DNA of 64,000 bases from Candidatus Binatia bacterium. Lineage in GTDB: Bacteria; Desulfobacterota; Binatia; Bin18. The position numbers and the translations under genes are program-made. Position 1 is the stretch's first letter, and each line of letters opens with the position of its first letter. The DNA lies in NCBI GenBank assembly GCA_963664395.2, contig OY761159.2:4288001-4352000 (forward strand). Reading direction: 5' to 3'. The notes under the pieces were generated by a model that did no database searches, had not been told where the DNA came from, and saw nothing but the letters and a program-made list of their open reading frames with translations. Below are positions 441 through 20,229 of the stretch, one piece after another.

Positions 441-652
441 CCAAATGCACTCTCGCCGTCTTGCATCTCCTCGCTCAACGAGGCCCGGCCTGCCCAGATT
501 ACCTCAAGGCCTTTATATGGAAACAGAGGCGTAACCCCACCTTGCATCCGTAGAGGCTTGTGGCTAGGATCGCGGCAGTTCGTGTAACTGAACCTTCATT
601 CAGCCATTCGGCCAAACTACACACTATAAGTATTGAGAGAAGGGGACTCAGT

Positions 653-1897: not shown

Positions 1898-1910
1898 GGA
1901 AAGATATTTC

Positions 1911-3539: not shown

Positions 3540-3548
3540 CCGACCTGC

Positions 3549-4937: not shown

Positions 4938-4938
4938 G

Positions 4939-6282
4939 ATGGCTCTTCACGCGCAACAGCTCTTGTGGCTGCTTGTCTGCTGCCTGCTGTGTTCCGGCAG
5001 TCTGGGGGCCGCGACCGTGGCGGCAGACCAAGACGGTCTGACGCCGCAGAAAACCTGGACAACGGCTGCCGAGCTCACGGCCGAAGAAAAAGGAGTGCTG
5101 GATTTCCGTACGGACACGCCGCGAGATGCCAGCGTGCCCTATCTGCCGGCCGAGTCCTTCCCGTTTCAGCCGCCCTATACGGCGGAAGAAATGGCGCTGC
5201 GAGCCATGGAGTTCCCCCACTCGCCGTTCTGGGACTGCATCCTGATCGACATGGCGTTCTCGGTGACGAATTCAGGATTTATGGACCAACGCGTGACGCT
5301 TATTCCCATTCTGTATTTTCCTGAGAACGGCTTTGGAGAACATCTGTACGCGGCGCAGCCCGGCCAGGAAATCTATCGCTGGCTCTCCCAAAGCGTCTCT
5401 CCACCCGAACGGTACGGGAATCAGACCTTATGGATAGGCTATCGGACAGATAAGACCTTCCGGACGAAAATAGACATGTTCGCCTATTCTCCATCGCTGC
5501 GGCGAATCCGTCGTCAGCCGCAACCGCGGCGGGAAGACCGTTTACCAAACAGTGCCGCAACCTTCGATAATCTGATCGGACGCGATGCCTGGGAGTTCTC
5601 GTGGCGCATTCTCGGGACGGATGTTTTGCATCAGACGGTGCGTTTCCCCAAGACGCGCCAAACCGCGGTGCTGACCGACGAGAAAGGGCAGTACGTTGAA
5701 GTTGACGCCAAAGATCTCTCCCTCATGGGCAAAGAATACCCGCTCTATACCGCCGATGGTGGAGTCAAATGCTATGTGCTCGAAGCCATACCAAAATCCG
5801 ACTGGCTGCGTGACTACTATGCCCATAGGCTTATTTACTGGGTTGACCAATATGCGTTCTTTCCCTTGCGGATGGAAGAATATGACCGACAGGAGAATCT
5901 GAGTTTTGTGAACACCCGGATTGCGAGCCTTGCCAACCCGGCTCTTCAGGAACACGGCTACGCGGTTCAGTTTGACCTGTGGTGGGACGTGTCTATTGAC
6001 TTCCTGTCCGCCTCGACCCACGGTTTTGTCCCCCAGACCTGGTCAGCGGCAGACAAAAAGATATTCTTCAGCTCCGGATTCATGCGCCGCGAGTGGTTCC
6101 TTGTGCCGCCCAAGGGCCTGATGAGTCTCAACTCGCCGGACGAATTCTACCTGCGGCCCCCGCTCGAAGAGGGGAAATTCCCGGACTCGCGCTCTATCAG
6201 TTTGTCCCCTGGTCTACGGGCTCTGATTGAGGCCCAAGAGCGCGAGGGTAAGCTGGTGTTTGAGGAGGGAAGGGACGGCTAA
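4939..6282 (+). CDS. Second DUF1329-like protein (tandem paralog)
   Basis: Shares PYLPAE.(Y/F)PFQPPYTAEEM, RR(V/I)RRQPQPRR and GRDAWEFSWR.LGTDVLH with the previous ORF; ATG 1 nt after the upstream stop. Confidence 0.7.
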   Translation: MALHAQQLLWLLVCCLLCSGSLGAATVAADQDGLTPQKTWTTAAELTAEEKGVLDFRTDTPRDASVPYLPAESFPFQPPYTAEEMALRAMEFPHSPFWDCILIDMAFSVTNSGFMDQRVTLIPILYFPENGFGEHLYAAQPGQEIYRWLSQSVSPPERYGNQTLWIGYRTDKTFRTKIDMFAYSPSLRRIRRQPQPRREDRLPNSAATFDNLIGRDAWEFSWRILGTDVLHQTVRFPKTRQTAVLTDEKGQYVEVDAKDLSLMGKEYPLYTADGGVKCYVLEAIPKSDWLRDYYAHRLIYWVDQYAFFPLRMEEYDRQENLSFVNTRIASLANPALQEHGYAVQFDLWWDVSIDFLSASTHGFVPQTWSAADKKIFFSSGFMRREWFLVPPKGLMSLNSPDEFYLRPPLEEGKFPDSRSISLSPGLRALIEAQEREGKLVFEEGRDG

Positions 6283-6340: not shown

Positions 6341-7456
6341 TTACTCCGTCGTGTGTGTATCTTGCCAGGCGCGGCCCATCGAGTCCGCGGCCAGAATGGC
6401 GTCGGCAACCATGTCAGGCTGCACGGCAAACGGTTCGTTATGGATGGTTTCTCCTTCCGCGGTCGCCCGCGTGGCCACTTGTTCAAGCAGGTCTTCCGGG
6501 AATTCGCTGAGCCCGATCTCGGCCAGGGTGATAGGCAGGCCGACCGCTGATGAAAACTCCAGAACCGGATCGATAACCGAGCGTGGCTGACCTTCGAGCA
6601 CTAATTGAGCCATCAGGCCGTAGGCGACTTTTTCCCCATGATAGTACGGATGGGTGAGCGGGGCTGCGGTGAGGCCATTATGGATGGCATGGGCTGCGGC
6701 AAGCCCTGAGGACTCGAAGCCCAGACCCGACAGCAGGGTGTTGGCTTCGACAAGCCGCTCCAGGGCTGGATTGACAACGTGACGTTCCACGGCCCGTTTC
6801 GCATCCGGACCGTCTTCAACCAGGATGTTGTAGCACAGCTCCGCCAGCTTTTCGGCGCTGCGCGTTGAGGCTCCCCCACGCATATTCTGGACATGACCGG
6901 CAACACAGGTTTTGGCCTCGAACCACGTGGCCAGCGCATCTCCCATCCCTGCCACCAGCAGCCTGGCCGGAGCTTGGGCGACAACATAGGTGTCCACCAC
7001 AACCAAATCCGGGTTCTTCCGATAAAAGCGATATTCCTGGAATACCCCTTCGGGAGTATAAATCACCGACAGCGCGCTGCACGGCGCATCACTTGAGGCA
7101 ATGCTTGGACAGTTGACGACAGGCAGATCAAGGTCGTCGGCGGCGGCCCGGGCCGCATCCAATACCTTCCCGCCGCCCGCTCCGATAATGACCTGAGCCT
7201 TATTCGCCCGCGCCGTTTCTTTGATACGTTCGATTTCAGGGTAGGAGCACTCCCCCCCGAACTGATGGACGACGTGGGTGATGCCGGCATCGTTCAAATG
7301 TTTCTGCCAGACTTCCGAGAGCAGCCGAATGGCACTTTTCCCGGCAACAATACAGGCCGGTCCCTGCAAGCCAATACGCTGCATTTCCGTTCCTAAGGCG
7401 GCAGTGGCGTGCTTCCCTTGTACGTAGTGGCTGGGGGCTGAAAAAACCGAGAGCAT
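6341..7456 (-). CDS. gldA: Glycerol dehydrogenase (GldA family)
   Basis: FSAPSHYVQG, GAGGGKVLD, IASSDAPCSALSVIY, GMGDALATWFEA, AAAHAIHNGLT and HGEKVAYG motifs; RBS before ATG 7456. Confidence 0.9.
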   Translation of the reverse strand: MLSVFSAPSHYVQGKHATAALGTEMQRIGLQGPACIVAGKSAIRLLSEVWQKHLNDAGITHVVHQFGGECSYPEIERIKETARANKAQVIIGAGGGKVLDAARAAADDLDLPVVNCPSIASSDAPCSALSVIYTPEGVFQEYRFYRKNPDLVVVDTYVVAQAPARLLVAGMGDALATWFEAKTCVAGHVQNMRGGASTRSAEKLAELCYNILVEDGPDAKRAVERHVVNPALERLVEANTLLSGLGFESSGLAAAHAIHNGLTAAPLTHPYYHGEKVAYGLMAQLVLEGQPRSVIDPVLEFSSAVGLPITLAEIGLSEFPEDLLEQVATRATAEGETIHNEPFAVQPDMVADAILAADSMGRAWQDTHTTE

Positions 7457-7582
7457 ATGTCCCTCCTTACCGATTGCTATTCCCTCAGATAGAGCAGGCA
7501 GTATAAACTGAGACGGGTTGACGCGGCAAGCAGGAGAGGGCCATTGGGACAAGAGGAGAGACGTTACTGTCGCCCCATATTG

Positions 7583-8437
7583 ATGAGCAGGATTCAGTAT
7601 CGGGTGCTCTGTCTCGTTGTCTTCGCCCTCTGGGGGGCTGGATGTTCTGAATTGCCGGGCGAACCACTCAAGTTAGGTCGGCATACGTATAGTAACGACC
7701 CCAGCGCCGAGCCGTGTCCGCTCGGTGAACGGAGCGGCCAGGGTGGTATGAGCAACGATGAGCGGACCGAACACGGGATTACGTATGCGGTTCGGACGCC
7801 GGCCAACTACAATCCAAAGATTCTTCACCCGCTCCTCATGGTCTATGCCCCAGCAGGCTCAAGTCGGTTTCACTCCGAGCGTCTGACCAATCTGACTTTC
7901 ACGGCAACGACGGCCGGCTTTGTCGTTGCCTACGCTGACTCCCTGCGTCTTTCACTCGAAGCCATTCCTGAACTCGGTACGATTCCACGGCTCATCGCCA
8001 AAAAATGGTGTGTTGATGAGCGGCGTGTCTATCTGACCGGCCATTCTGACGGTGGAACAGTTGCCTTGGCCCTGGCCCTTTTAGACGAGACACGCCACAT
8101 TCCCGCTGCGGTGGCTCCGAGTGCCGCCGGGTTCAGGCAGGCCGACCTCGAAACATTCTCGTGTCCCGAAGCCTTGCCTGCGCTGATTATGCACAGTGCG
8201 GATGACCATCTTTTCCCCGGCTACGGGGCTGATACGGCTGCTTGGCTGGCTTCGTGTAACGAGTGCCAGCCCCGTTCTATTGACAAGGACGAAAACGGTT
8301 GTATGGCCTACTCAGGCTGCACGGCGGCGAACAGAAAGACCATATACTGCGAAGGAACTGGTGCGCATAGGCATTGGCCCGCGCTCAATACGGCTCTCCT
8401 CTCGTTCTTCGTTGATATCGATAGCACCCTTCACTAA
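7583..8437 (+). CDS. PHB depolymerase/LpqC-like esterase, predicted lipoprotein
   Basis: Lipobox-like WGAGC; nucleophile elbow GHSDGG; HSADD and C-terminal HRHWP. Confidence 0.75.
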   Translation: MSRIQYRVLCLVVFALWGAGCSELPGEPLKLGRHTYSNDPSAEPCPLGERSGQGGMSNDERTEHGITYAVRTPANYNPKILHPLLMVYAPAGSSRFHSERLTNLTFTATTAGFVVAYADSLRLSLEAIPELGTIPRLIAKKWCVDERRVYLTGHSDGGTVALALALLDETRHIPAAVAPSAAGFRQADLETFSCPEALPALIMHSADDHLFPGYGADTAAWLASCNECQPRSIDKDENGCMAYSGCTAANRKTIYCEGTGAHRHWPALNTALLSFFVDIDSTLH

Positions 8438-8528
8438 ATAGGGCTCGCGCCCTGGAGTTGTCTCCGCTCCCTCAGCCTGCTATCTCAGTACCGTTGGTAA
8501 ATGACTGAAATTTCGTAAGAATTGACTG

Positions 8529-9101
8529 ATGCGACGAGCCTGCCGAATCTTCCTTCTCATATCCGCAGTGGCGACGCTCTGCCTGGCTCTTCCTGTGTCA
8601 TCCTGGGCGCACCGGGATAGAGGGCCGGGAGACCTGTGCCGCCGAGAGGTCGGTGCTTCACTCTTGCATATTACGTTCTATCAGACCCAATTTGACCCGG
8701 TCACAGAATATTGTGAAGAAATTCCGCGGGTGGGCAATGCTTTCCTGGTCGTGGACGTGACTCCGGATCTATGGGAAATGCCGTTCGGCGTCCAACTCGT
8801 TGCCTCAGATGAATCTGGACAGTCGAGTACGATACTGTCGCTGCCTTCACAAGTGTATGAACGTGGCGTGGCCAACGCTGAAGTCTTTGTGAAGGCCGGC
8901 ATGAGCTATGAAGTGCGTGTCGCGCTTGGACTTGAAGGTGAACCAGAACCGCGTAAATTTTTATTTCCCTTTCAGGTTGCAGCATGGTACAAGGCTATGG
9001 TCGGGCCAGCGCTGATTGTGATCGGAGTCGTTATCGTCATTGCGATATCGGTAATCCGTTATCAGATCACCTCTCGGAGCAGAGAAGCGCTGGTGGAATA
9101 A
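8529..9101 (+). CDS. pmoD: PmoD/AmoD-like copper protein (copy 1)
   Basis: Signal peptide, DLC-x7-LLHITFYQ...EYCEEIPRVG, C-terminal TM helix; directly upstream of xmoC. Confidence 0.75.
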   Translation: MRRACRIFLLISAVATLCLALPVSSWAHRDRGPGDLCRREVGASLLHITFYQTQFDPVTEYCEEIPRVGNAFLVVDVTPDLWEMPFGVQLVASDESGQSSTILSLPSQVYERGVANAEVFVKAGMSYEVRVALGLEGEPEPRKFLFPFQVAAWYKAMVGPALIVIGVVIVIAISVIRYQITSRSREALVE

Positions 9102-9151
9102 AGAGAGAGAGTGTAAAGTAACGTCGTTATTACTATTGAGGAGGGATACGC

Positions 9152-10000
9152 ATGGCTCAGGCGCAAGCAGTACAAAACGTACCGAAAGGTTCTGGCGATG
9201 GTTCTCTGACAAGTGGCAGCTCAGTCAACCCGACTGATTGGTCAGTCGGGTGGCATCCTCTATTCTGGGGGTGTGGGCTTATTATGCTTGCCAACGTCTT
9301 TTTCTGGTGTTGGAACTATGCCTTTATGTTCACGGCCGGACTGAACTCAGCGAGTGCTGAATTCACGCTGTATTACCGGACGCTGTTCTGGGGCGAACTA
9401 ATTGTCTTAGGCGTGTTTAGTGGCGTGTGGTTTGGCTGGCTCATGCGGAATGGCCGGGCCGTTGAGGGACAAGAATGCTCACCCGCCGAGGAGACGCGTC
9501 GCATCGCGATTTTGTGGAGCCTGATTGGCGCGACGAGTCTGGCAATCTATATGGAAGCCAGCTTCTGGCCGAACTGGGACGGCTCGTGGCACCAGACCAT
9601 GGTGCGTGACACCGCGCTCACACCGACCCACATCCCGATGTTCTACTTTTTCTTCCCGCTCTCCGTCGTGTTAGCAGTTGGCACCTACGTCTACGGGCGA
9701 TTCCACATTCCGGCGCTGTACGGCAAGGATAAAGGCTTTCCCTGGTCGTTCTTTTTGCTGATCAGTGCCTGTGTGCTCGAATGCATGGCCGTTGCCGCCA
9801 ATGAGTGGGGCCATAGCCTGTGGATCTCCGAAGAGATTTTCTCCGTTCCGTTTCACTGGCCGTTTGTGATTTATGGCTGGCTTGCCGCCGGCATGTTTGC
9901 GGTGTGGGGTGAAACCCTGGTGCGCATGTTCGAGGTCGAGAAGGCCGAAGAGGCTGCTCATCCGGAATCTTCACTCGAGTCGCCGCTAGCTGCTGATTAA
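9152..10000 (+). CDS. xmoC: Copper membrane monooxygenase subunit C (PmoC/AmoC family)
   Basis: DGSWHQTMVRDTALTPTH (CuC D,H,H) and NEWGHSLWISEEIFSVPFHWPF (CuD N,H,H); GAGGAGG RBS. Confidence 0.93.
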   Translation: MAQAQAVQNVPKGSGDGSLTSGSSVNPTDWSVGWHPLFWGCGLIMLANVFFWCWNYAFMFTAGLNSASAEFTLYYRTLFWGELIVLGVFSGVWFGWLMRNGRAVEGQECSPAEETRRIAILWSLIGATSLAIYMEASFWPNWDGSWHQTMVRDTALTPTHIPMFYFFFPLSVVLAVGTYVYGRFHIPALYGKDKGFPWSFFLLISACVLECMAVAANEWGHSLWISEEIFSVPFHWPFVIYGWLAAGMFAVWGETLVRMFEVEKAEEAAHPESSLESPLAAD

Positions 10001-10062
10001 TAATCGGCTCAGGTTTGGCTCGATAAACGTATCGACAATCCTCGTGCAGAGAGGAAGTGCGC

Positions 10063-10866
10063 ATGGCGGCAGACACCACAACCGTAACGGACATCACCGG
10101 TGCAGCCGAACGGCAACGTCGGCTCGAACTCAAGGAGCTGCTGAACAAGAAATACAAGTGGCTTGGTTGGAAGTGGGATCTTGTCTTCTGGACGACGGCT
10201 ATTTTCGTAGTTGCCGGTGCCGCTGACATCACCAAGCAGCTGTTTGCCGGTGACTGGGATCACTGGACGGATTGGAAAGATCAGCAGTGGTGGCCGGTGA
10301 TCACGGCTTTTGCCACGATTATCATTCCGTCGGCGCTCCAGTACATTCAGTGGGCAGCTTGGCGATTCCCGACTGGCGCGACCTACACCGCCTGCTGTCT
10401 CTTTCTGGCTGCCTGGGCCGGGCGTTATTTCCAGTGGGACTTGGCGGCCAACTATCCGCTGAATTTCGTGTGGCCGGCCTCCGTCGTCTGCGCTGGAATC
10501 CTGATGGACTGGACCTTAATGAAGACCAAGAGTTTTATCCTCACCTCGTTAATCGGTGCCCATGTCTGGGCGATCGCGGTGTGGGCCTATAATTACGTCC
10601 CCTTAGCCGCCTTTCTCCAGCCGGCCTATTTCATGGACCATGTGGTGACGGTTGCCGACGTCCAGGGCATTGCCTATATCCGCTCCCAGACGCCGGAATA
10701 CCTCCGGCTTATTGAGCGGGGTGCGTTGCGGAGTTTCCTGGGCGAGACGCAATACGTTTCCCTGGCCTTTGGGGGAACGGCGGCCTTTGTTGGCTACTGG
10801 ATCGGTCAGTTTATTGGCCGTTATCTGGCGGTATGGCCTATTCGGCGTTATCTGAAGATCGTGTGA
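10063..10866 (+). CDS. xmoA: Copper membrane monooxygenase subunit A (PmoA/AmoA family)
   Basis: GDWDHWTDWKD, RFPTGAT, YPLNFVWP and ADVQGIAYIRSQTPEYLRLIERGALRSF motifs; start 10057 GTG or 10063 ATG. Confidence 0.93.
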   Translation: MAADTTTVTDITGAAERQRRLELKELLNKKYKWLGWKWDLVFWTTAIFVVAGAADITKQLFAGDWDHWTDWKDQQWWPVITAFATIIIPSALQYIQWAAWRFPTGATYTACCLFLAAWAGRYFQWDLAANYPLNFVWPASVVCAGILMDWTLMKTKSFILTSLIGAHVWAIAVWAYNYVPLAAFLQPAYFMDHVVTVADVQGIAYIRSQTPEYLRLIERGALRSFLGETQYVSLAFGGTAAFVGYWIGQFIGRYLAVWPIRRYLKIV

Positions 10867-10867
10867 G

Positions 10868-11227
10868 ATGAATATTATGTGCGGCATGTCTTTCAAACGT
10901 CAGCAATCTGCCCGGTATGTCAGCGTCTTCTCTTTCTTCATCGCGCTGCTTGCCGGTGTGTCTCTCTATCCTTCCCTCGCGCATGCCCACGGTATGAACG
11001 CCGCTGAAATGGCCCCGCCTATTATTACCGCGGGCATACTGGCGTTCGTCTGCTACTGGCTCGTGGTTTTGTGGCCGGCATCGAAAGGTGCCGAAACCGG
11101 CCTGCAGTGGCCGCCGGAAACGGACCGGGCTATTCGCATCAAACGCAAGCCTCGCTTACGGGTCATAGAAACGAAGCCTCAGCTCCCGGACGAACAGCCT
11201 GAGAGCAGGCAGGTGGCCGATGGCTAA
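10868..11227 (+). CDS. Small uncharacterised membrane protein between xmoA and xmoB
   Basis: Starts 1 nt after the xmoA stop and overlaps the xmoB start by 8 nt; signal peptide ending AHA, mature HGMNAAEM, one TM helix, basic tail. Confidence 0.7.
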   Translation: MNIMCGMSFKRQQSARYVSVFSFFIALLAGVSLYPSLAHAHGMNAAEMAPPIITAGILAFVCYWLVVLWPASKGAETGLQWPPETDRAIRIKRKPRLRVIETKPQLPDEQPESRQVADG

Positions 11228-12479
11228 GCGGTTCGTGATCGGTAGTGTCGGCGTGTTAGGCGTCATCCTGGCCGTTGTCGTCGCCAAGACGCCCAGCGCC
11301 TTTGCCCATGGTGAGGCTGCCGACGAACCGTTCTTGAAAAACATGACTACGGCTTTCTTCAACGTCAGCGTTTCGCCGACCGAAATCGAGGTGGGAGAGC
11401 CGGTCAAGGTGACGGGCTCGGTCAAAATCCTCGAGACCTGGCCGCATACGCTGGAGACCCCGGAAATCGCTTCCATCATGCCGGTCGTCCCCGGGCCGGT
11501 CTTTGTACTCAGGGAGCGTTTTGTCAACGGAACGGCCGCCATCGGCTCGTTTTTCGCCCAAAAGGGGGACATTTACGAGTTTGAAATGGAGCTGGTTGGC
11601 AAAGAGCCAGGGGACTGGCATGTGCATCCCGGTATCGCCATCTATGGGACCGGTACCCTGATTGGGCCTGGCGAATGGGTTAAAGTCAAACCAAGTGCTG
11701 AACCCTTCTCATTCCCGCTCACACTGATGTCTGGTGAGACGATTGAACTCGGTACGTATGGAGGATCATTCGTCTGGTGGTGGTCGTTTGCCGGATTTGT
11801 CTTGGGGGTTATCTGGATACTGTACTGGACGACGAATAAAAGAACGGTGACCAATCTCGCAGTCACTGTCCAGCTGCCAGTGAATGACGATGCCCCCGAT
11901 ATTGGCCTCATCACGCCGCGTGACCATATGTGGATGAATGTTATCGTTGGCGTGACCCTGGTTATGCTGGTTGTCGGTTGGACGTATGCCACATCAAATG
12001 CGCCAGTTCGCTGGCCGCAGCAAACGGACTGGTTTACTCCGGAATTCATTTCTTCTGGTGAGAAAATTGTTGAGGCCCGGGCCAGCGGGGCGACGTATGA
12101 CGAAGCGAGTGAAACGCTTGAGATGAAGGTCCAAGTGACGAATGTTGTTGAGAGCGACATCGAACTCAAGCAACTGACTATAGCGATGGCGACCTTCGTG
12201 AACGGACCGGAAGCCGAACAGGCGAAAGCCGGTCCGAGTGATTTTGTTGGTCGGCTCGAAGTCCAGCCGGACGGGCCGATTGCTCCGGGCGAAAATAAAG
12301 AGCTGACCCTGACTATTTCAAGTAGTATTTTCAGCGAAGAGCGTCTCATCCCGACGCAAGCACCGCAGCAGTTTATTGGCGCAGTCTTACGCTTTGAGAA
12401 TGGGAACGACGGTCATGAGTTAGTGACGGTCCGTTCAAACGTCGTCCCCACTCAGTTCCGTTCTACCTATCTGCCATAA
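11220..12479 (+). CDS. xmoB: Copper membrane monooxygenase subunit B (PmoB/AmoB family)
   Basis: Signal peptide then AHGE, PGPVFV, GDWHVHP, GPGEWV, two central TM helices, PIAPGE and ERL motifs. Confidence 0.93.
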   Translation: MAKRFVIGSVGVLGVILAVVVAKTPSAFAHGEAADEPFLKNMTTAFFNVSVSPTEIEVGEPVKVTGSVKILETWPHTLETPEIASIMPVVPGPVFVLRERFVNGTAAIGSFFAQKGDIYEFEMELVGKEPGDWHVHPGIAIYGTGTLIGPGEWVKVKPSAEPFSFPLTLMSGETIELGTYGGSFVWWWSFAGFVLGVIWILYWTTNKRTVTNLAVTVQLPVNDDAPDIGLITPRDHMWMNVIVGVTLVMLVVGWTYATSNAPVRWPQQTDWFTPEFISSGEKIVEARASGATYDEASETLEMKVQVTNVVESDIELKQLTIAMATFVNGPEAEQAKAGPSDFVGRLEVQPDGPIAPGENKELTLTISSSIFSEERLIPTQAPQQFIGAVLRFENGNDGHELVTVRSNVVPTQFRSTYLP

Positions 12480-12520
12480 GCTCCAGAGCGGGGACAGACC
12501 TCCCCGCGGGTGGAGCCTCG

Positions 12521-13093
12521 TTGGACAGCGTTGTGAAACTCTTCTCCCTTGTTGCCATGCTCCTCGTCCCAACGGGAGCATGGGGACATGGGGGTGTCGC
12601 CATGGATATGGACCCCTGCATAGAGCGGGCCGGCGCCTATCTGATCCATTTTTCTGCCTACCAGCCGCAAGAGTACGCAACCGAAGAATTCTGTCGGAGC
12701 GTTCCTCTGACCGGGAGTACGATTCTCGTTTTTGATCTGATTGATCCCGAATTGCGCAAGAAATCAGCTGCGGTGCGCATTATTAAGGAAACCAATACTG
12801 CTGAACCTCGACTGTTGCTCGATATCCCGGCACGGGTGTATCCCAGCGGCGTGGTGAATGCTGAAGTCCATTTTGACACACCTGGCCAGTATACGGCCCT
12901 GATGACGCTTGACGGGGTTGATGGGTCTGTGCGGTTTCCCATTCGAGTCGCTTCACTCTCAAATACCATGCTGGTCCTGATCGCGGGCCTGATCATCGGC
13001 TGCGGCGCTGGCTATTATGTCGTCGGTGGCAAACTCGGTTGGCCACCGTTTTCGGTGAAAAAGGTTCCGTCACTCACATTGGTCAAGGGATAG
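12521..13093 (+). CDS. pmoD: PmoD/AmoD-like copper protein (copy 2)
   Basis: HGGVAMDMDPC-x7-LIHFSAYQP...EEFCRSVPLTGSTILVFD, YPSGVV, C-terminal TM; TTG start. Confidence 0.8.
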   Translation: MDSVVKLFSLVAMLLVPTGAWGHGGVAMDMDPCIERAGAYLIHFSAYQPQEYATEEFCRSVPLTGSTILVFDLIDPELRKKSAAVRIIKETNTAEPRLLLDIPARVYPSGVVNAEVHFDTPGQYTALMTLDGVDGSVRFPIRVASLSNTMLVLIAGLIIGCGAGYYVVGGKLGWPPFSVKKVPSLTLVKG

Positions 13094-13151
13094 GTGCGAA
13101 ACCACCTATCCCCCCTTTTCCTAACGCTCTGTTCACAGTACATATTGAACG

Positions 13152-14846
13152 ATGTGGCTGCGTGGTCTTCTCTTTTTCTGCCTTCTTCTGAGTGTACTCG
13201 CTATCGGTACGCTTTTTCTGCTTCCTCGTGCCTGGCTCCCCCGCCCGATACAAGACTTTGCGTATCAATATATCGGCGAAGAGTCCTACCAAAAGCCGCC
13301 TCCCAGTCGCGAAATAAGCCCTGTCAGTGTGGAGCCATTTTGTCTGGACAGACACCCAGACTGGCGGAAACCTCAGACTATTGAGGGCGTTGCCGTGGAA
13401 GCATCACCGGTTTGTGATCCAGATAATCCAGCCGACATTGCGGCCTTTGTCAAAGGGACGAATAATATTGCTCTGCACACGCTCATGGAGACGCGGCTCA
13501 CGCCCAATACGGTGGTGAAGGAGAACGACCGAGACGGGGATGGCGACCCGGATGAGATTCACATCCGACTTGAAGTCATAGAATTGAACGGACACTCACC
13601 GGATGACCCCGCCCCATTCCCCGCCTATTTCATTGCGCCTGGCGTACAGCCCGGGCTGTGGGTTTTTGCTCCAAAATCACGCGGCATGGCGACGGAGAAT
13701 TTTGAAAGTGAACAGGCGCACCCGACCTTGAGAGCCCCGTCTCCGGTGATTCGTATAGAGCAGGGTGATACGCTCCGGGTGACCTTGGAGAATACACACT
13801 ATCTGCCGCATACCATTCACTTCCATGGGGTTGACCATCCCTTTGTTGACGCCGCCGGCGAGGGAAACGACGGTGTTCCCATTGTGAGTGAAATGCCAGT
13901 CACACCAGGGGAGAGTCGCACCTATGAGATGACCCCGCGTCAAACGGGCACGATGTTTTACCACTGCCACGTCCAACCTCATGTCCATATTCTGATGGGA
14001 CTCCAGGGCATGTTTGTTGTTGAAGAGAACCGGCCGAATAACTGGCTCCAAACGCTCAATATTGGAGCCGGTCGGGTGCGCGCTGTCTCTGCGGCAGTCA
14101 GAGAGTCGTATGATCGGGAATTCGACCTGCACTACCAAGACATCGACCCGGCGTTGAATAACATTATTCAGACCGCGACGGATCCCAGATTAATCGCCGA
14201 AGCGACGAATCGGGGTTATGACATTACGGATCAAGAACCTGACTATTTCTTACTAAACGGACGGTCATTTCCCTATACGACCCGCGAGTCGCTTGTTGTT
14301 GTTGCCCCAAATGAACGGGTCAAACTGCGTGTCCTCAACGGCGGAGCGGAAGGAATCTCTCTGCATACGCATGGGCATAAAGTCAAAATCACGCATTATG
14401 ACGGCGTCGAACATAATCCGGCTGCTCAAATCACCCGCGATGTGGTATGGCTGAGCCCCGCCCAACGGGTAGATCTTCTCCTCAATACAACTGATGACGG
14501 ACTGCATAATTATGGGCAAGGCATCTGGCTGCTCCACGACCATAAGGAAAAGGCCATCACAACTGATGGGATCAACCCTGGTGGCAATATCAGTGCCATT
14601 GTCTATCAGGATTACTTGGACGCATCCGGTCAGCCGAAAACGCAGGGGATGGATTGGGCGCCGTTTTTCACCAAGGAGTATTATCAAAAAAAGCTTCCCA
14701 TCTGGGCTGGCCTGGAGGACTTTAACCTTTTTGGAGAGGCGGGTACTCGTTCCCTGCCCTTGAGTTCCGCACTCATACTCGGGATAGGTATCGGCTTCCT
14801 CATCGGCGCGGCTTGTGCCTTTGGGCGATTTACCCGACGCCGATGA
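13152..14846 (+). CDS. Membrane-anchored two-domain multicopper oxidase
   Basis: HTIHFHG and YHCHVQPHVHILMGL (type 1 Cu) in domain 1; LHTHGH and WLLHDH in domain 2; hydrophobic N- and C-terminal segments. Confidence 0.88.
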   Translation: MWLRGLLFFCLLLSVLAIGTLFLLPRAWLPRPIQDFAYQYIGEESYQKPPPSREISPVSVEPFCLDRHPDWRKPQTIEGVAVEASPVCDPDNPADIAAFVKGTNNIALHTLMETRLTPNTVVKENDRDGDGDPDEIHIRLEVIELNGHSPDDPAPFPAYFIAPGVQPGLWVFAPKSRGMATENFESEQAHPTLRAPSPVIRIEQGDTLRVTLENTHYLPHTIHFHGVDHPFVDAAGEGNDGVPIVSEMPVTPGESRTYEMTPRQTGTMFYHCHVQPHVHILMGLQGMFVVEENRPNNWLQTLNIGAGRVRAVSAAVRESYDREFDLHYQDIDPALNNIIQTATDPRLIAEATNRGYDITDQEPDYFLLNGRSFPYTTRESLVVVAPNERVKLRVLNGGAEGISLHTHGHKVKITHYDGVEHNPAAQITRDVVWLSPAQRVDLLLNTTDDGLHNYGQGIWLLHDHKEKAITTDGINPGGNISAIVYQDYLDASGQPKTQGMDWAPFFTKEYYQKKLPIWAGLEDFNLFGEAGTRSLPLSSALILGIGIGFLIGAACAFGRFTRRR

Positions 14847-15580
14847 GGGAATACCAAATGGATTTCTTTCTGAGGAAGAATGATTATAGGGGGACGGTGG
14901 CGTCCGGGAGAAGGCAGCTCCATAGGGCCGTCTCTACACTGATTGTCTATACCGTGTCCACATTGCTTTCCGGCGCGATCGGCTCGGCTCAAGAGCATGC
15001 TCATCACCATAAACATCATGGGATGCAGCTCGATACTGCGGGTATGGTGATGAATGAAAATACGGACCAGCTCCCCCGGGGCTGCCCCCGCATTTCAGGT
15101 GAGCACGAGCTTACCGTTCGTGCCGGAAAAGAATTTGCCCACCCAGGGACGATGTTCGCGTATGATCGGAACGAATGGGATTTTAAGCCATGTACGAAAC
15201 TCACGGTGACGCTCATTAATACGGACAGTGTTCGTCACCAGTGGATGCTGCACGGCCTTCCGCGCTATATCTACCCCCAGGGCATGTTTACGCTTGAAGT
15301 CGCGGGCAAAGGGCAGCGGACAGGTACCTTTATCCTTCCGCCCGGAGACAAGACCTATCTGGTGCACTGTGATGTTCCTCAGCATATGGAAAAGGGAATG
15401 AAGGCCCAGCTCAAGGTCGGGGCTGGAAATGGGGATCTGCCCAGCATTCCCGGGGTGACCGGACCGCGTCTGCGGGACCCGTATTCAATGGCCTGGAACT
15501 GGTGGACGCATGGTGCTGTCTTTGTATTCGGTATCGTCAGTATGATCTTCGTGGGAAGAAGGTTGCGCCTTTTTCCCTAG
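14843..15580 (+). CDS. Cupredoxin (type 1 blue-copper) protein with His-rich N-terminus and C-terminal TM anchor
   Basis: HAHHHKHHGM; HQWMLHG and HCDVPQHMEKGM (C-x4-H-x4-M); ATGA overlap with the MCO stop. Confidence 0.8.
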   Translation: MREYQMDFFLRKNDYRGTVASGRRQLHRAVSTLIVYTVSTLLSGAIGSAQEHAHHHKHHGMQLDTAGMVMNENTDQLPRGCPRISGEHELTVRAGKEFAHPGTMFAYDRNEWDFKPCTKLTVTLINTDSVRHQWMLHGLPRYIYPQGMFTLEVAGKGQRTGTFILPPGDKTYLVHCDVPQHMEKGMKAQLKVGAGNGDLPSIPGVTGPRLRDPYSMAWNWWTHGAVFVFGIVSMIFVGRRLRLFP

Positions 15581-15685
15581 GAGTTCGGGGCGTCATATGC
15601 CCTCTTTCTCTTGACCTCCAGTCTAAAAATAAGTAGGGTTCGACCACATTTTTCGATTGTCAATTACTCCGAGGAGGCATTATCC

Positions 15686-17398
15686 ATGCGAGGTTACTGG
15701 TTGTCGATATTTTTACAGGTGGCAGTCTCTCTCATGCTTCTCTCTCCAACCGCACTTTACGCTGACGCGCCTGCCAAGAACGCTGACGCGCTTCAGCCGG
15801 TTACGCACGAGCGTTTGGTCAAAGGAACGGCCAACTACGCTGACTGGCTGATGTACGGTGGGAATTATGAAGGCTGGCGATTTAGTCCCCTAACGGATAT
15901 TGACCGCCAGAATGTCAAAAAACTCCAGGCCGCCTGGATTTTTCAAACCGGGGTGCCAGCCCAAATGCAAGCCTCACCCGTGGTTGCCGATGGCGTGATG
16001 TATCTTACCGCGGCCTACAACAAGCTCTTTGCTTTAGACGCCGTAACTGGCAAACCGCTCTGGAAATATGACCATGATCTGCCGGACGATCTGCGGATTT
16101 GCTGCGGACCGGGCAACCGGGGAGCTGCGCTGGCTGGGGATAAGGTCATTATGGCCACGCTGGATGCGCGTATTGTCGCACTCAACAGGAAAACCGGTGC
16201 AGTCGTGTGGAATACCCAAGCCGACGACTATGCCGACGGCTTCAGCTTTACCCTGTCACCACTGATTGTTCGAGACAACGTCATTGTTGGTATTGCGGGC
16301 GGTGAATACGGTATTCGCGGCTATATTGATGCCTATGATCTTAAGACCGGAAAACGCAAATGGCGTCGTTATACGGTGCCTGACGAAGGCGAGCCTGGTG
16401 CCGAGACCTGGGCTGGTGATTCGTATAAACAAGGCGGCGGACCGGCTTGGGTGACTGGCTCGTATGATGCGGATCTTGACCTGGTTTATTGGGCAACGGG
16501 TAATCCGGCCCCGGACTGGAACGGGGATGGACGTGAGGGTGATAATCTCTACACCAACTCGGTGTTAGCTCTTGAGCCTGATAGCGGTGAGATCAAATGG
16601 TACTTCCAATTCACCCCGCACGACGTCTGGGACTATGATGGCAACACGGGGATATTTCTGCTCGACGTGATGCGCAGTGGCCAGTCTGTCAAAGCCTTAG
16701 CCCAGCCCAATCGGAACGGATATATGTATGTCCTTAATCGTGGGGATGGAAAGTTCCTGCACGGCTCCCAATACGTTGAGCAGCTCAACTGGGCGAAAGG
16801 GCTGGACGAAAATGGCCGGCCGCTTATTGACCCCAAGTATGTTCCCATGGAGGGAGGCAATCCTGAATTAATCTGTCCCGGGAATGCGGGGGGACAAAAC
16901 GGATCGTATGCTGCGGCCTACAGCCCGCTTGCCAATCTCATCTTTGTCCCGACGATTGAGAGTTGCGGAAAAATGGAAAAGGCCAAATCTATTTTCATCA
17001 AAGGCATCCCATTCTGGGGCGGGGGGCCTGGACAAACGCAGGGCGACCTCGGCACAGCATACGGTCACGTCACGGCCATAGACCCCACCAGGGGTGAAGT
17101 GAAGTGGCGCTATAAGGACGAGTGGCCGATGGTTGGTGGGGCACTCGCTACAGCCGGGGGACTCGTATTTACCGGCAACCAAAAGGGATTCGCTCTTGCC
17201 TTGGATGACGCGACGGGTGCGGTCTTGTGGAGGTTCCAAACTGGCTCGGCTGTTCGGGGACAACCGATTACATACAAAGTTGGTGGTAAACAATATGTTG
17301 CTGTTCCCAGTGGCGCCGGGGGGTTGGTCGTGGATATCGTCGGTAAATATCCCCAAACAACACCGGGTAGCTCTGTTGTGGTATTTGCGCTCCCGTGA
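15686..17398 (+). CDS. PQQ-dependent alcohol dehydrogenase, putative lanthanide-binding type
   Basis: Signal peptide, vicinal CC (RICCGPGNRG), GGEYGIRG, WATGNPAP, FTPHDVWDYDGN; no CxxCH haem motif; GAGGAGG RBS. Confidence 0.92.
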   Translation: MRGYWLSIFLQVAVSLMLLSPTALYADAPAKNADALQPVTHERLVKGTANYADWLMYGGNYEGWRFSPLTDIDRQNVKKLQAAWIFQTGVPAQMQASPVVADGVMYLTAAYNKLFALDAVTGKPLWKYDHDLPDDLRICCGPGNRGAALAGDKVIMATLDARIVALNRKTGAVVWNTQADDYADGFSFTLSPLIVRDNVIVGIAGGEYGIRGYIDAYDLKTGKRKWRRYTVPDEGEPGAETWAGDSYKQGGGPAWVTGSYDADLDLVYWATGNPAPDWNGDGREGDNLYTNSVLALEPDSGEIKWYFQFTPHDVWDYDGNTGIFLLDVMRSGQSVKALAQPNRNGYMYVLNRGDGKFLHGSQYVEQLNWAKGLDENGRPLIDPKYVPMEGGNPELICPGNAGGQNGSYAAAYSPLANLIFVPTIESCGKMEKAKSIFIKGIPFWGGGPGQTQGDLGTAYGHVTAIDPTRGEVKWRYKDEWPMVGGALATAGGLVFTGNQKGFALALDDATGAVLWRFQTGSAVRGQPITYKVGGKQYVAVPSGAGGLVVDIVGKYPQTTPGSSVVVFALP

Positions 17399-17441: not shown

Positions 17442-17471
17442 GGAGAGGCGCAGCATGGCCCCTCCTTTTTT
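17442..17471 (+). terminator. Probable intrinsic terminator closing the CuMMO-ADH locus
   Basis: GGAGAGGC/GCCCCTCC stem (1 mismatch) followed by T6, between convergent genes. Confidence 0.55.
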
Positions 17472-17494
17472 GTTGCGTACGCTCAATACCAGCC

Positions 17495-18289: not shown

Positions 18290-19147
18290 ATGAAAATAGG
18301 GGTTTTCGAGTTCTGTATTGATAGATCAGTTGATCCGGCTATCATCGCAAAACGTGCGGAGGAGTTGGGCTTTGCCTCCTATTGGGTGCCTGAACATGCG
18401 ATTATTCCGATTCAAACCAGTTCGCCCTATCCAGGCTCGGAAGACGGCATGATTCCAGACGAGTATGGCCGCATCACTGATCCATTTGTGTCTTTGGCTC
18501 GGGCATCGGCAGTGACCAAGACGATTGAACTCGGCACGGGGATTTGCCTGATCCCGGAGCGCAATCCGCTTGAATTAGCCAAAGAAGTAGCGACCCTGGA
18601 TCACTTCTCGGGCGGTCGTTTCATCTTTGGTATTGGTGCCGGCTGGCTGAGAGAAGAGACCGAGATCATGGGGGGTAACTTTGATCACCGCTGGGGACAA
18701 ACCAAGGATGCCATCCTGGCCATGAAGGAACTCTGGACGCAGGACGAGGCCGAATATCACGGCAAGTACTATGACTTCCCCGCGGTCCGTTCATTCCCAA
18801 AGCCGGTGCGAAAACCGCACCCGCCGGTGTATATGGGCGGCTCATCAAAGTATGTCTTTAAGCGGGTGGTCGAATGGGGCGACGGTTGGATGCCCGTTCT
18901 TTCACCGGTGGAATACATTAAAGAAGGTCGGCAGCGCCTCAACCAGATGGCCGAACAGGCTGGCCGTGATCCAAAAGAAATCTCTGTCCTGGCCTTTGGC
19001 TTGCCCGAAAAGTTCCGGACCAAAGAAGAAATCAGTGAACTGAAATCGGCTGGCGTGGACCATGTCACCATATGGCTGATGCAGAGTGAGGAGGGCGAGG
19101 GCGCTGTCCTCGCAGAATTGGAGTCTCTGGCGAAAGAAGTGCTGTAG
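18290..19147 (+). CDS. LLM class probable F420-dependent oxidoreductase (Rv2161c-like)
   Basis: AEELGFASYWVPEH, LAKEVATLDHFSGGRFIFGIGAGWLREE and PKPVRKPHPPVYMGG motifs. Confidence 0.85.
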   Translation: MKIGVFEFCIDRSVDPAIIAKRAEELGFASYWVPEHAIIPIQTSSPYPGSEDGMIPDEYGRITDPFVSLARASAVTKTIELGTGICLIPERNPLELAKEVATLDHFSGGRFIFGIGAGWLREETEIMGGNFDHRWGQTKDAILAMKELWTQDEAEYHGKYYDFPAVRSFPKPVRKPHPPVYMGGSSKYVFKRVVEWGDGWMPVLSPVEYIKEGRQRLNQMAEQAGRDPKEISVLAFGLPEKFRTKEEISELKSAGVDHVTIWLMQSEEGEGAVLAELESLAKEVL

Positions 19148-19174
19148 GGGGAACGGGTTTCAAACGAGACAGGG

Positions 19175-19204
19175 AAGGGGCAGTCCTGTGACTGCCCTTT
19201 TTTT
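19175..19204 (+). terminator. Intrinsic terminator
   Basis: Perfect GGGCAGTC/GACTGCCC stem, 4-nt loop, T-tract. Confidence 0.75.
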
Positions 19205-19218
19205 CTAGGAGAAGAAGT

Positions 19219-20229
19219 ATGATCAAATTTGGCATCATGGCCATGCCCCAGCATCCCCGAACGGATTCGCCTGTCAAACGATTCAAAGAAGCCGTCGAAC
19301 TGACTCGATTAGCCCGTGATGCTGGACTCGACTCGATTGCCTGCGGTCAGCACTTCCTTGCCCCGCCGTATCAGAACATCCAAAGCCTGCCTTTGCTGTC
19401 GCGGCTGGCGGCTGAGAGTGGCTCGATGTCACTCGTGCTGTCGGTGATTCTGCTCCCGCTGTATAGCCCGGTTGGTCTGGCGGAAGATGTCGCTTCGCTC
19501 GATGTCATAAGCGAAGGACGCGCCGTTTTTGGCGTTGGGCTCGGCTACCGGGATATCGAGTATCAGGGATTCAATACTCGTCGACGTGACCGTATTCCGC
19601 GCTTCGAGGAGTCCCTGGAGCTCATACGTCGCCTCTGGACAGAAGAGAATGTGTTCTTCCGGGGCAGCCATTTCAGTCTGGAAAACGCGACGAGTACGAT
19701 TCGGCCCGTCCAGCAACCGCATCCGCCTATCTGGATTGCTGCGAACAATGATAGCGCCATTGAGCGTGCCGGCCGGCTGGGGTGTTCGTGGCTGGTAAAT
19801 CCGCACGCCACCACCCACACCTTGCAACGACAGATGGCGCTGTATAAAGCCACTTTGGCCGCCGCTGGTCATACCGACGCGCTGGAGGTCCCTATCATCA
19901 AAGAAATGCATGTCGCCAAAACGCATGACGAATCGCTGGCGATTGCCCAGCCGTATCTGGAGAAAAAATATCAAGCCTATGCTGACTGGGGACAGGACAA
20001 GGAATTACCCGGCGAGGAATCGTTTCGCGTATCGTTTGAGGAACTGGCCAAGGACCGCTTCATTCTTGGCAGTATCGAAGAAGTTATTGAGCAAATCGAA
20101 GTCCATCATCACCAACTCGGCATTGACCATTTTATTTTCCGCATCTGGTGGCCAGGCATGGAAGCCTCTCATGCCTACCGCGTAGTGGAACTGCTGGGCG
20201 AGCACATTATTCCGTATTTTCGAAAATGA
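19219..20229 (+). CDS. LLM class flavin-dependent oxidoreductase (luciferase-like)
   Basis: LAEDVASLDVISEGRAVFGVGLGYR and RPVQQPHPPIWIAA motifs. Confidence 0.85.
   Translation: MIKFGIMAMPQHPRTDSPVKRFKEAVELTRLARDAGLDSIACGQHFLAPPYQNIQSLPLLSRLAAESGSMSLVLSVILLPLYSPVGLAEDVASLDVISEGRAVFGVGLGYRDIEYQGFNTRRRDRIPRFEESLELIRRLWTEENVFFRGSHFSLENATSTIRPVQQPHPPIWIAANNDSAIERAGRLGCSWLVNPHATTHTLQRQMALYKATLAAAGHTDALEVPIIKEMHVAKTHDESLAIAQPYLEKKYQAYADWGQDKELPGEESFRVSFEELAKDRFILGSIEEVIEQIEVHHHQLGIDHFIFRIWWPGMEASHAYRVVELLGEHIIPYFRK

Follow-up and report, generated by a model that had tools for sequence, protein, structure and literature searches.

The question raised by the locus described here is what a ten-gene cluster built around a divergent copper membrane monooxygenase (CuMMO) oxidises, and whether all ten genes serve one pathway. 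The cluster lies in a stretch of 64,000 nucleotides from a Candidatus Binatia bacterium (G000:C1:4288001-4352000, here called the window; genome 5.04 Mb), in which ten open reading frames (ORFs) follow one another on the plus strand between positions 7544 and 17398, in the order hydrolase, D1, XmoC, XmoA, x, XmoB, D2, multicopper oxidase (MCO), cupredoxin and pyrroloquinoline quinone (PQQ)-dependent alcohol dehydrogenase (PQQ-ADH), with gaps between 91 nt and −8 nt (91, 50, 56, 1, −8, 41, 58, about 11 and 30 nt in gene order). The original prediction had described a same-strand run with short or overlapping gaps and had named each gene; the run, the gaps and every gene identification were confirmed by family scans and by matches in the Protein Data Bank (PDB). 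The observation of the ten-gene cluster is confirmed and its interpretation is partly supported. From sequence comparison, it is fairly probable that the locus is a periplasm-facing oxidation module, in which an XmoCAB of the hydrocarbon monooxygenase (HMO) lineage would act on a short-chain hydrocarbon and the alcohol so formed would then be oxidised in turn.

XmoC (9152..10000, +; PF04896, E 8e-42), XmoA (10057..10866, +; PF02461, E 2e-52) and XmoB (11220..12479, +; PF04744, E 9e-70) together matched the three subunit families of the CuMMO superfamily, all far above the Pfam cut-offs, and against the PDB XmoA scored 149 bits with PmoA and 134 bits with AmoA. The XmoA frame starts at a GTG at 10057; an ATG at 10063 agrees with relatives of 267 aa. 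Aligned to PmoC chains, XmoC showed the PmoC-type metal motifs D-x3-H-x12-H and N-x3-H-x13-H, numbered after the PmoC metal sites, and D143, H147, H160, N217, H221 and H235 were invariant in 34/34 relatives. XmoB, with two membrane helices by hydropathy, was predicted to begin with His30 after signal cleavage between AFA and HGE and carried a CuB-type H134-x-H136; these positions aligned to the HGE that opens mature PmoB and to GDWHVH, and A29, H30, H134 and H136 were likewise invariant in 34/34 relatives, so that CuB-, CuC- and CuD-type residues were all conserved throughout this set. Membership in the canonical families of particulate methane monooxygenase (pMMO) and ammonia monooxygenase (AMO) was not found: the subunits fell below the NCBIfam cut-offs for TIGR03078-80, NF041557, NF041640 and NF041641, with 190 bits vs 290 and 164 vs 318 (TIGR03080, pMMO/AMO) for XmoA, 263 vs 336 and 179 vs 395 for XmoB, and 156 vs 319 and 140 vs 281 for XmoC. 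The best NCBIfam matches of all three were the bacterial AmoA/B/C models, each below its cut-off.

Identity by blastp to the HMO of Mycolicibacterium chubuense NBB4 was 42/30/38% for A/B/C, and tblastn with XmoA gave 42-45% to M. chubuense NBB4, Rhodococcus and M. dioxanotrophicus. Named XmoA relatives outside Binatia were closer: Caldinitratiruptor (73%), Dormibacteraeota (68%), Carbonactinospora (65%) and Lentzea (63%). An XmoA tree of 118 rows was inferred by a quick IQ-TREE run from homology-search proteins thinned at 80% identity and 14 hand-picked Binatia loci; it was built without named PmoA/AmoA rows, the pBMO of Nocardioides CF8 or SAR324, and several clade members are unnamed. The window XmoA fell in a clade of 67 rows (Shimodaira-Hasegawa-like approximate likelihood ratio test (SH-aLRT) support 99, stem 1.11), separate from the characterised actinobacterial clade of NBB4-type Mycolicibacterium/Rhodococcus sequences (4 rows, SH-aLRT 99) and outside it. 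A split supported at 99 placed the window clade, the NBB4-type clade and the clade of the second copy in this genome on one side, and Pxm, Haliea and gammaproteobacterial sequences on the other; since long branches meet in this tree, its deep relations are provisional. By its place in the tree, XmoA is on the HMO side of the CuMMO family, in a large clade without a characterised member. The enzyme had been called divergent, and the missed equivalog cut-offs, the distance to NBB4 HMO and the position outside the NBB4-type clade all agree with that description. NBB4-type HMO is credited with C2-C4 alkane activity in a review. Binatota CuMMOs have been placed in the HMO group, and Binatota are listed among HMO-bearing phyla in later papers.

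The same genome holds a second contiguous xmoCAB operon outside the window (G000:C1:2386403-2389375, minus strand; locus L003:8401-11367), without x or PmoD genes. Its XmoA was 34% identical to the window XmoA, formed its own clade of 5 rows (stem 1.07), had Haliea sp. ETY-M as nearest named relative (41%) and was much rarer (3 protein clusters at >=75% identity, that is at least 75%, the next at 57%); of the two enzymes in this genome it is perhaps the more unusual. On a metagenome contig (L147:2802-5762) a divergent C-A pair stood directly upstream of a Binatia-type C-A-x-B operon and was followed by an ORF matching the PmoD (D2) profile with 119 bits, an arrangement that looks like tandem CuMMO operons.

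The last gene of the cluster (15611..17398, +; likely start 15686) encodes a periplasmic PQQ-ADH of the ethanol-dehydrogenase type, with 594 bits to TIGR03075 (cut-off 480), 413 bits to the quinoprotein ethanol dehydrogenase 6zcv and 334 bits or less to XoxF/MxaF (XoxF 334). Its WDYDG aligned to WDFDG of 6zcv, placing an Asp at the lanthanide position, and a vicinal Cys-Cys pair and a periplasmic signal peptide were present. A second Asp marks lanthanide PQQ-ADHs, the Ca-dependent PedE having Ser there (PMC5487730), and the enzyme is predicted to be of the lanthanide type. In these features it resembles PedH/ExaF-type enzymes, to which its best PDB matches belong (lanthanide Asp, vicinal Cys pair, signal peptide; PMC5487730), from which it differs in lacking an adjacent gene for a cytochrome c partner and in having a cupredoxin gene there instead. 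The genome also contains pqqC.

That cupredoxin (14858..15580, +; start preceded by GAGG and in agreement with relatives) gave only a marginal Pfam match. An AlphaFold2 (AF2) model made from 18 relatives had a core predicted local distance difference test (pLDDT) value of 78-92, and Foldseek placed AcoP, auracyanin and pseudoazurin at the top (E 2e-7 to 4e-6; template modelling (TM) score to target 0.55-0.66). With the ligands H127/H132, C171, H176 and M181 invariant in the alignment of relatives, both fold and His, Cys, His, Met ligands identify a type-1 cupredoxin; it is membrane-tethered, ends in a C-terminal helix and has an invariant GMVMNEN motif. AcoP and auracyanin, the membrane-anchored carriers closest to it in fold, act as respiratory electron carriers. 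A His-rich stretch (e.g. HAHHHKHHGM) follows the N-terminal hydrophobic segment (window 14858-15100) and occurs in relatives as well; this stretch and GMVMNEN may bind metal.

The MCO (13152..14846, +; 564 aa) matched the Pfam families Cu-oxidase_3/_2/Cu-oxidase, and its best PDB matches were the two-domain laccases 2zwn (E 1.5e-31) and 3g5w (E 1.8e-29), the latter presumably from Nitrosomonas europaea. Ligand motifs assign it to the two-domain class with the type-1 site in domain 1: eight His for the trinuclear cluster were found, domain 2 had no Cys ligand, and H220, H223, H225, H271, C272, H273, H279, M282, H405, H407, H462 and H464 were invariant in 27/27 sequences. It shares with 2zwn (a metagenome laccase) and 3g5w the two cupredoxin domains, with HxH pairs in each and the type-1 site in the first, and is unlike them in its membrane helices at the N and C ends (hydropathy) and in a conserved N-terminal extension of ~160 aa, modelled by AF2 with a mean pLDDT of 53.8, too low for a fold search. 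Within this extension (window 13500-13540, residues about 125-135) an invariant DRDGDGDPDE looks like a calcium-binding loop.

These assignments suggest a sequence of steps in which XmoCAB, assembled and loaded with copper with the help of D1, D2 and x, would hydroxylate a substrate that is small and hydrophobic, with a C2-C4 alkane or alkene as the likeliest candidate. The alcohol would be oxidised in the periplasm, toward aldehyde or acid, by the lanthanide-type PQQ-ADH, whose family is read from its sequence and whose substrate is conjectural. The membrane-tethered cupredoxin is the likely acceptor of the electrons of PQQH2, because the locus has no cytochrome c gene, the protein carries a membrane tether and it resembles AcoP and auracyanin in fold; from it, electrons could pass to the respiratory chain, to the MCO or back to the monooxygenase. 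Binatota are described as using alternative complex III (PMC8262859). We agree with the earlier statement that the substrate cannot be read from sequence.

D1 (8529..9101, +; PDB 6cpd, E 2e-5) and D2 (12521..13093, +, TTG start; 6cpd, E 6e-11) are ORFs of 190 aa that flank xmoCAB. Their matches to 6cpd, two invariant Cys and a C-terminal helix place both in the PmoD/AmoD family; for D1, a signal peptide, a cupredoxin-like periplasmic domain and the C-terminal membrane helix were predicted (helix from hydropathy). Both belong to the motif class Cx9HxnC, whose second Cys recurs in all aligned relatives, and fall outside the CuA-forming subclass Cx7MxHxnC, Leu (rarely Val) replacing Met in D1, D2 and all aligned relatives. 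The Met of Cx7MxHxnC is required for CuA in PmoD, and PmoD proteins of the Cx9HxnC class bound copper and formed no CuA (Fisher et al. 2018). An invariant His lies at the predicted signal-peptide junction of each, between A and H in D1 and between WG and HGG in D2. Elsewhere in the genome, searches found no further PmoD, MCO or cupredoxin belonging to these families.

Protein x (10868..11227, +; 119 aa) has no family in Pfam or NCBIfam, and neither its single sequence nor its profile found anything relevant in the PDB, which includes AMO entries; a protein atlas gave no usable match. It consists of a signal peptide with predicted cleavage between AHA and HG, the motif HG(G)MAGPDELGPP, one membrane helix ending YW..LWP and a basic tail; as the signal peptide ends in an invariant Ala-His junction, mature x would start with His41. 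In most Binatia loci the space between A and B measures 320-490 nt, and an x homologue was found in 75/75 Binatia loci holding A and B, 60 as ORFs and 15 by translated search, one of the latter split over two frames. The family comprises 536 clusters at 90% identity, all named 'hypothetical' and from Binatia and Methylomirabilota, and 100 representatives at 50% identity. Among 80 further metagenome loci selected for closeness to actinobacterial members, x was present in 36 Binatia-like loci, and A and B were contiguous in the 44 others. An orphan x-like frame without a clear start codon occurs elsewhere in the genome (G000:C1:1872182-1872379; L178:8183-8380, +; 69.5 bits to the x profile), with a core reading AYA, the junction, then HRGFGPAELG...YWVVMLWP; its neighbours, an M18 aminopeptidase gene on one side and a FadB-like gene on the other, give no functional hint.

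The operons of NBB4, Rhodococcus WAY2 and M. dioxanotrophicus have no x between A and B; each has a small ORF directly after hmoB, reading M-x(4-6)-LAHGGQ(L/M)T(S/G)DE followed by one helix. An ORF of the form M-x(3-9)-AH[GQ]G-helix (AHGG or AHQGEE) followed B in 19/45 non-Binatia loci, including all 3 characterised-type plasmid operons. The two kinds differ in position and export: in Binatia, x is encoded between xmoA and xmoB with a signal peptide that can be cleaved off, while the ORF of Mycobacteriales and other non-Binatia stands right after xmoB and has none. Profile-profile comparison of the post-B ORFs with the core of x gave a probability of 75% and P 2.6e-5 over 37 columns; in 31 controls, the reversed alignment gave P 0.12 and the best of 30 column shuffles P 0.022. 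In a search of 1.84 billion proteins the x profile also matched the bridging representative P0403 (E 4e-7), a protein that lacks a signal peptide and whose N-terminus, MAHGGGMTGEE, is like that of the mycobacterial ORFs. Counting against the link, the hidden Markov model (HMM) of the post-B ORFs scored P0403 at only 17 bits, the same HMM run against 54,571 six-frame ORFs of the genome did not recover x (best unrelated match E 0.2), and the post-B set had been chosen by motif. On these comparisons the question whether x is homologous to the AHGG ORFs after hmoB is about evenly balanced. A wider proposal, that x and the post-B ORFs form an undescribed microprotein family of the type 'AHGG + one helix' and a fourth component of HMO-lineage CuMMOs, is tentative and rather doubtful. 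If it were true, the conserved His of these microproteins on the periplasmic face would serve as a copper ligand or fill out a metal site in the enzyme, and the family would be a counterpart of archaeal AmoX and of the extra helix left unassigned in pMMO/AMO structures. Complex prediction of XmoC, XmoA and XmoB with x, run without controls, scored 0.23 against a mark of 0.32, a value that counts neither for nor against an association, and a literature search for a published account of the small ORF after hmoB retrieved only unrelated papers.

For conservation of the neighbourhood, the best 80 of 524 confirmed XmoA-relative stretches were used, one genome per species; nearly all of these 80 loci are titled Candidatus Binatia or Binataceae, in line with the link to Binatota that had been suggested. 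The check proposed in the original prediction, a comparison of neighbourhoods, had a divided outcome. Accessory genes were conserved in relatives; the full order of ten genes was kept in 16/80 loci, all of one genus-level group, and MCO and cupredoxin were missing from Binataceae-type loci with the same enzyme, which means that they are not obligatory partners of it. Kept much more widely than the ten-gene order was D1-C-A-x-B, with D1 upstream of xmoC in 50 of the 74 loci with room for it. D2 stood directly after B in 21/80 loci, MCO was present in 26/80 and MCO with cupredoxin in 24/80, the hydrolase in 21/80 and PQQ-ADH somewhere in the locus in 19/80; the order D2-MCO-cupredoxin was retained down to 57-60% protein identity. 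In a sample of 301 Binatia genomes (XmoA at E 1e-60 or better, MCO at E 1e-40 or better), XmoA was found in 62 (including the unpublished G403) and MCO in 50, with 47 genomes holding the pair; in the closed genomes that have both, MCO and XmoA lie 2-3 kb apart. MCO without XmoA occurred in three genomes (G490, G214 and G259, 82-92% complete) and XmoA without MCO in 15 (G397 and 14 of family f5, one of which is G403); MCO was restricted to families f1 (44/48), f85 (1/1) and f86 (4/8). As the sampled genomes are kin, these counts show linkage within a lineage and not independent events. MCO and cupredoxin are an add-on unit of one family-level group and not part of the core enzyme.

Eleven RNA runs from seven studies matched part of the stretch, and four runs from two studies were mapped as contigs; the runs with a small share include some labelled sponge metagenome, from which no habitat is claimed. 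One contig of 3578 bases with 4 differences (X3) covered 9001-12578, which takes in the end of D1, all of C, A, x and B and the first part of D2; X5 covered 9113-11347, and X1, from a strain ~98% identical, 8441-10304 and 10275-11692. MCO and cupredoxin were bridged by X1 (14446-14961) and X2 (14350-14892), and cupredoxin and PQQ-ADH by X1 (15311-16794). No contig covered most of the hydrolase gene and little cover fell on 12760-13143, from which no lack of transcript can be read, nor do contig depths allow genes to be ranked. The locus is present in RNA libraries, and this is taken as evidence of in-situ expression.

In the D2-MCO spacer (13087..13151, +) the hairpin scan found a perfect 10-bp hairpin at 13087-13112 directly after D2, absent from the earlier description. 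A C6T3-4YCC motif was present in this spacer in 20 loci, the hairpin stem being only partly conserved. In the same 20 loci, some with ~47% D2 identity, the 20-25 nt up to the MCO start codon were conserved; motif and conserved stretch may be a regulatory or attenuator element. Co-transcription of all ten genes, one of the checks set out with the original prediction, is not supported as it stands, and the hairpin and conserved motif lie between D2 and MCO. The terminator-like hairpin reported at the end of the cluster is present as an imperfect GC-rich hairpin with a T-run at about 17443..17476 (7/8 pairs, then T6; no strand assigned), between the convergent PQQ-ADH and adenylate kinase genes; it was identified by eye on sequence inspection, and the automated hairpin scan did not list it. 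A scan of sigma-70-like promoters saw 7 where 7.4 were expected by chance, and Rfam and tRNA scans of the window gave no matches.

Several of these results weigh against a single hydrocarbon-oxidising module. The subunits are only 42/30/38% identical (A/B/C) to the HMO of NBB4, and as far as the searches reach, the 67-row XmoA clade has no characterised member. D2, MCO, cupredoxin and PQQ-ADH went undetected in 36 loci with >=5 kb (at least 5 kb) after B, and 14 genomes of family f5 with XmoA yielded neither MCO nor cupredoxin. The PQQ-ADH gene shifts position, standing upstream in L023, L025 and L035, and three further PQQ-ADH paralogues above cut-off lie elsewhere in the genome. A GldA-type dehydrogenase and the hydrolase, described below, would also fit diol, hydroxyketone or ester intermediates. 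The ten genes may form two transcription units, or one with an attenuator, as a perfect hairpin and a conserved motif separate D2 from MCO. Finally, since RNA-library reads were available as contigs and DNA can be present in such libraries, the RNA evidence extends to presence and bridging and is not proof of transcription or of a single transcript.

It is in the second half of the cluster that the module could come apart, with MCO, cupredoxin and PQQ-ADH forming a separate unit for copper homeostasis or general alcohol oxidation, functionally untied to the monooxygenase. The perfect 10-bp hairpin and motif after D2 would suit such a division, as would the mobility of PQQ-ADH within the neighbourhood and the lack of MCO and cupredoxin in most Binatia loci with the enzyme; PmoD-type genes are, moreover, reported as neighbours of MCO genes in copper contexts (PMC6189053). 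Yet 47/50 MCO-positive genomes carry XmoA, 2-3 kb away in closed genomes (the genomes being kin), D2-MCO-cupredoxin stay in order down to 57-60% protein identity, and the genome has no second copy of MCO or cupredoxin. We consider a separate unit unlikely.

The substrate might instead be an oxygenated or unsaturated C2-C3 compound and not an alkane, with acetone converted to acetol or ethylene/propylene to the epoxide, and a GldA-type dehydrogenase, PQQ-ADH and hydrolase processing diols, hydroxyketones or esters. The dehydrogenase in question, a GldA-like iron-type alcohol dehydrogenase of the glycerol-dehydrogenase family (6341..7552, −; PF00465), is a divergent syntenic neighbour outside the ten genes that scored 489 bits to NF006941 (cut-off 336) and lay near the models for 1,2-propanediol/glycerol dehydrogenase and glycolaldehyde reductase as well; a dehydrogenase of this glycerol/1,2-propanediol/glycolaldehyde type divergently adjoins the cluster, upstream on the minus strand, in 21/80 loci. 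The hydrolase ('esterase') that heads the cluster, also in 21/80 loci, is a lipoprotein or secreted serine hydrolase (7583..8437, +; the ORF opens at 7544 and 7583 is the likely start) with a GHSDG nucleophile elbow, a hydrophobic N-terminus and a LWGAGC lipobox; its alpha/beta-hydrolase matches were weak and all below Pfam cut-offs, a polyhydroxyalkanoate (PHA)-depolymerase-type model reaching E 4.5e-7. CuMMOs for acetone (verrucomicrobial PmoCAB3, PMC8630023) and for alkenes (Haliea, PMC6215863) are published. Set against these points, the window XmoA is not close to Haliea-type sequences, which fall on the opposite side of the tree, the GldA-like gene is on the opposite strand, the hydrolase is weakly classified and no epoxide-handling gene was seen in the window, and a C2-C3 substrate of this kind is still less likely than a separate unit.

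A methane monooxygenase, with the PQQ enzyme as its methanol dehydrogenase, would be compatible with the conservation of all pMMO-type copper ligands, and Murphy et al. 2021 (PMC8262859) kept methane as a possibility for this clade of Binatota; a better-scoring PQQ paralogue of the methanol/ethanol family (712 bits) is available elsewhere in the genome. We regard this as improbable: TIGR03080 gave 164 bits against its cut-off of 318, the clade that holds XmoA falls together with Actinobacteria that are not methanotrophs, the neighbouring PQQ enzyme belongs to the ethanol-dehydrogenase type, and Rokubacteria with related enzymes were unresponsive to methane (PMC8780371).

Ammonia oxidation, with MCO and cupredoxin oxidising hydroxylamine and carrying electrons as proposed for archaeal ammonia oxidisers, is very improbable, for although the best NCBIfam matches were bacterial AmoA/B/C models, the closest solved MCOs include 3g5w, a Nitrosopumilus MCO was among the matches listed and blue copper proteins have been proposed for archaeal hydroxylamine oxidation (PMC9038741), the Amo scores were far below cut-off (190 vs 290, 263 vs 336 and 156 vs 319), XmoA lies on the HMO side of the tree, nitrification has no place for a PQQ alcohol dehydrogenase, and many loci with the same enzyme lack the MCO.

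With a short-chain hydrocarbon module preferred, the locus can be set beside known systems. Titles, C-A-x-B order and a clade shared with Actinobacteria in the tree identify the core as a Binatota CAxB CuMMO. Binatota CuMMOs are reported in CAB, CAxB or CAxxB order, with pmoD in 5/11 genomes and two copies in two genomes, and in two clades, TUSC cluster 2 and Actinobacteria/SAR324, for which methane vs short alkanes was considered uncertain (PMC8262859). The window agrees with the account of Murphy et al. 2021 in its CAxB order with a hypothetical x, in pmoD in some genomes, in two copies in some genomes and in the PmoB His ligands; extracts from the main text of that paper (PMC8262859) gave no account of x itself, of pmoD on both sides or of the MCO-cupredoxin-PQQ-ADH extension. 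Because Binatota CAxB CuMMOs and pmoD were reported there, the core layout is already known, and the claim of an unrecognised architecture does not stand for this part. What is new is the extended ten-gene form, the arrangement of two Cx9H PmoD proteins and the character of x, around a core of the published kind.

The hmoCAB operons of NBB4, Rhodococcus and M. dioxanotrophicus share with the window the side of the tree, CAB order and a small single-helix AHGG ORF in the operon. They differ in that A and B are contiguous, the small ORF follows B and has no signal peptide, PmoD, MCO, cupredoxin and PQQ-ADH are missing, and the operons are plasmid-borne, beside an N,N-dimethyl-4-nitrosoaniline (NDMA)-dependent methanol dehydrogenase. 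Operons of the amoCABED and pmoCABD-copCD types likewise combine PmoD/AmoD-family genes with xmoCAB, with two paralogues per operon as in amoE/amoD (PMC6189053, PMC13058606); in the window, by contrast, one PmoD paralogue precedes xmoC, both are Cx9HxnC and not Cx7MxHxnC, and unlike the pmoCABD-copCD type the locus has no copC, copD or PCuAC gene. As a small membrane protein encoded between A and B, x is comparable in description to archaeal AmoX and to the C-A-X-B arrangement of Ca. Angelarchaeales (PMC9038741, PMC10030591). Supernumerary helices have been seen or proposed in CuMMO complexes, and bacterial pMMO/AMO structures show an unassigned extra helix.

Beyond the cluster, genes at 560-6282 of the window encode a family-III CoA-transferase (formyl-CoA-transferase-like, below cut-off), a DUF1302 protein and two DUF1329/LolA-like proteins, and keep their place beside the module in the closest genomes; the outer-membrane-type proteins among them might help to take up hydrophobic substrates. 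On the downstream side, beyond the adenylate kinase gene, 18290-20229 encodes two F420-type luciferase-like oxidoreductases (TIGR03619 family, the first above cut-off), which are syntenic in the closest loci, LLM1 lying directly after the cupredoxin gene in L023, L025, L026 and L035.

The reach of the finding is bounded by a core architecture that is already published and by a ten-gene form confined to one genus-level group. Within those bounds, Binatia are widespread and uncultured, and their CuMMO clade is large (524 confirmed stretches, one genome per species), with a substrate known for no member. The locus offers a test system for this clade, combining an operon in a closed genome with in-situ RNA evidence and a defined accessory set (two PmoD-type proteins, x, MCO, cupredoxin and a lanthanide alcohol dehydrogenase). 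It touches two long-standing questions of the CuMMO family, the delivery of electrons and the identity of the extra membrane helices: a cupredoxin beside a PQQ dehydrogenase makes 'direct coupling' testable without cytochromes, and a conserved His-bearing microprotein encoded in the operon makes the idea of a 'fourth subunit' testable.

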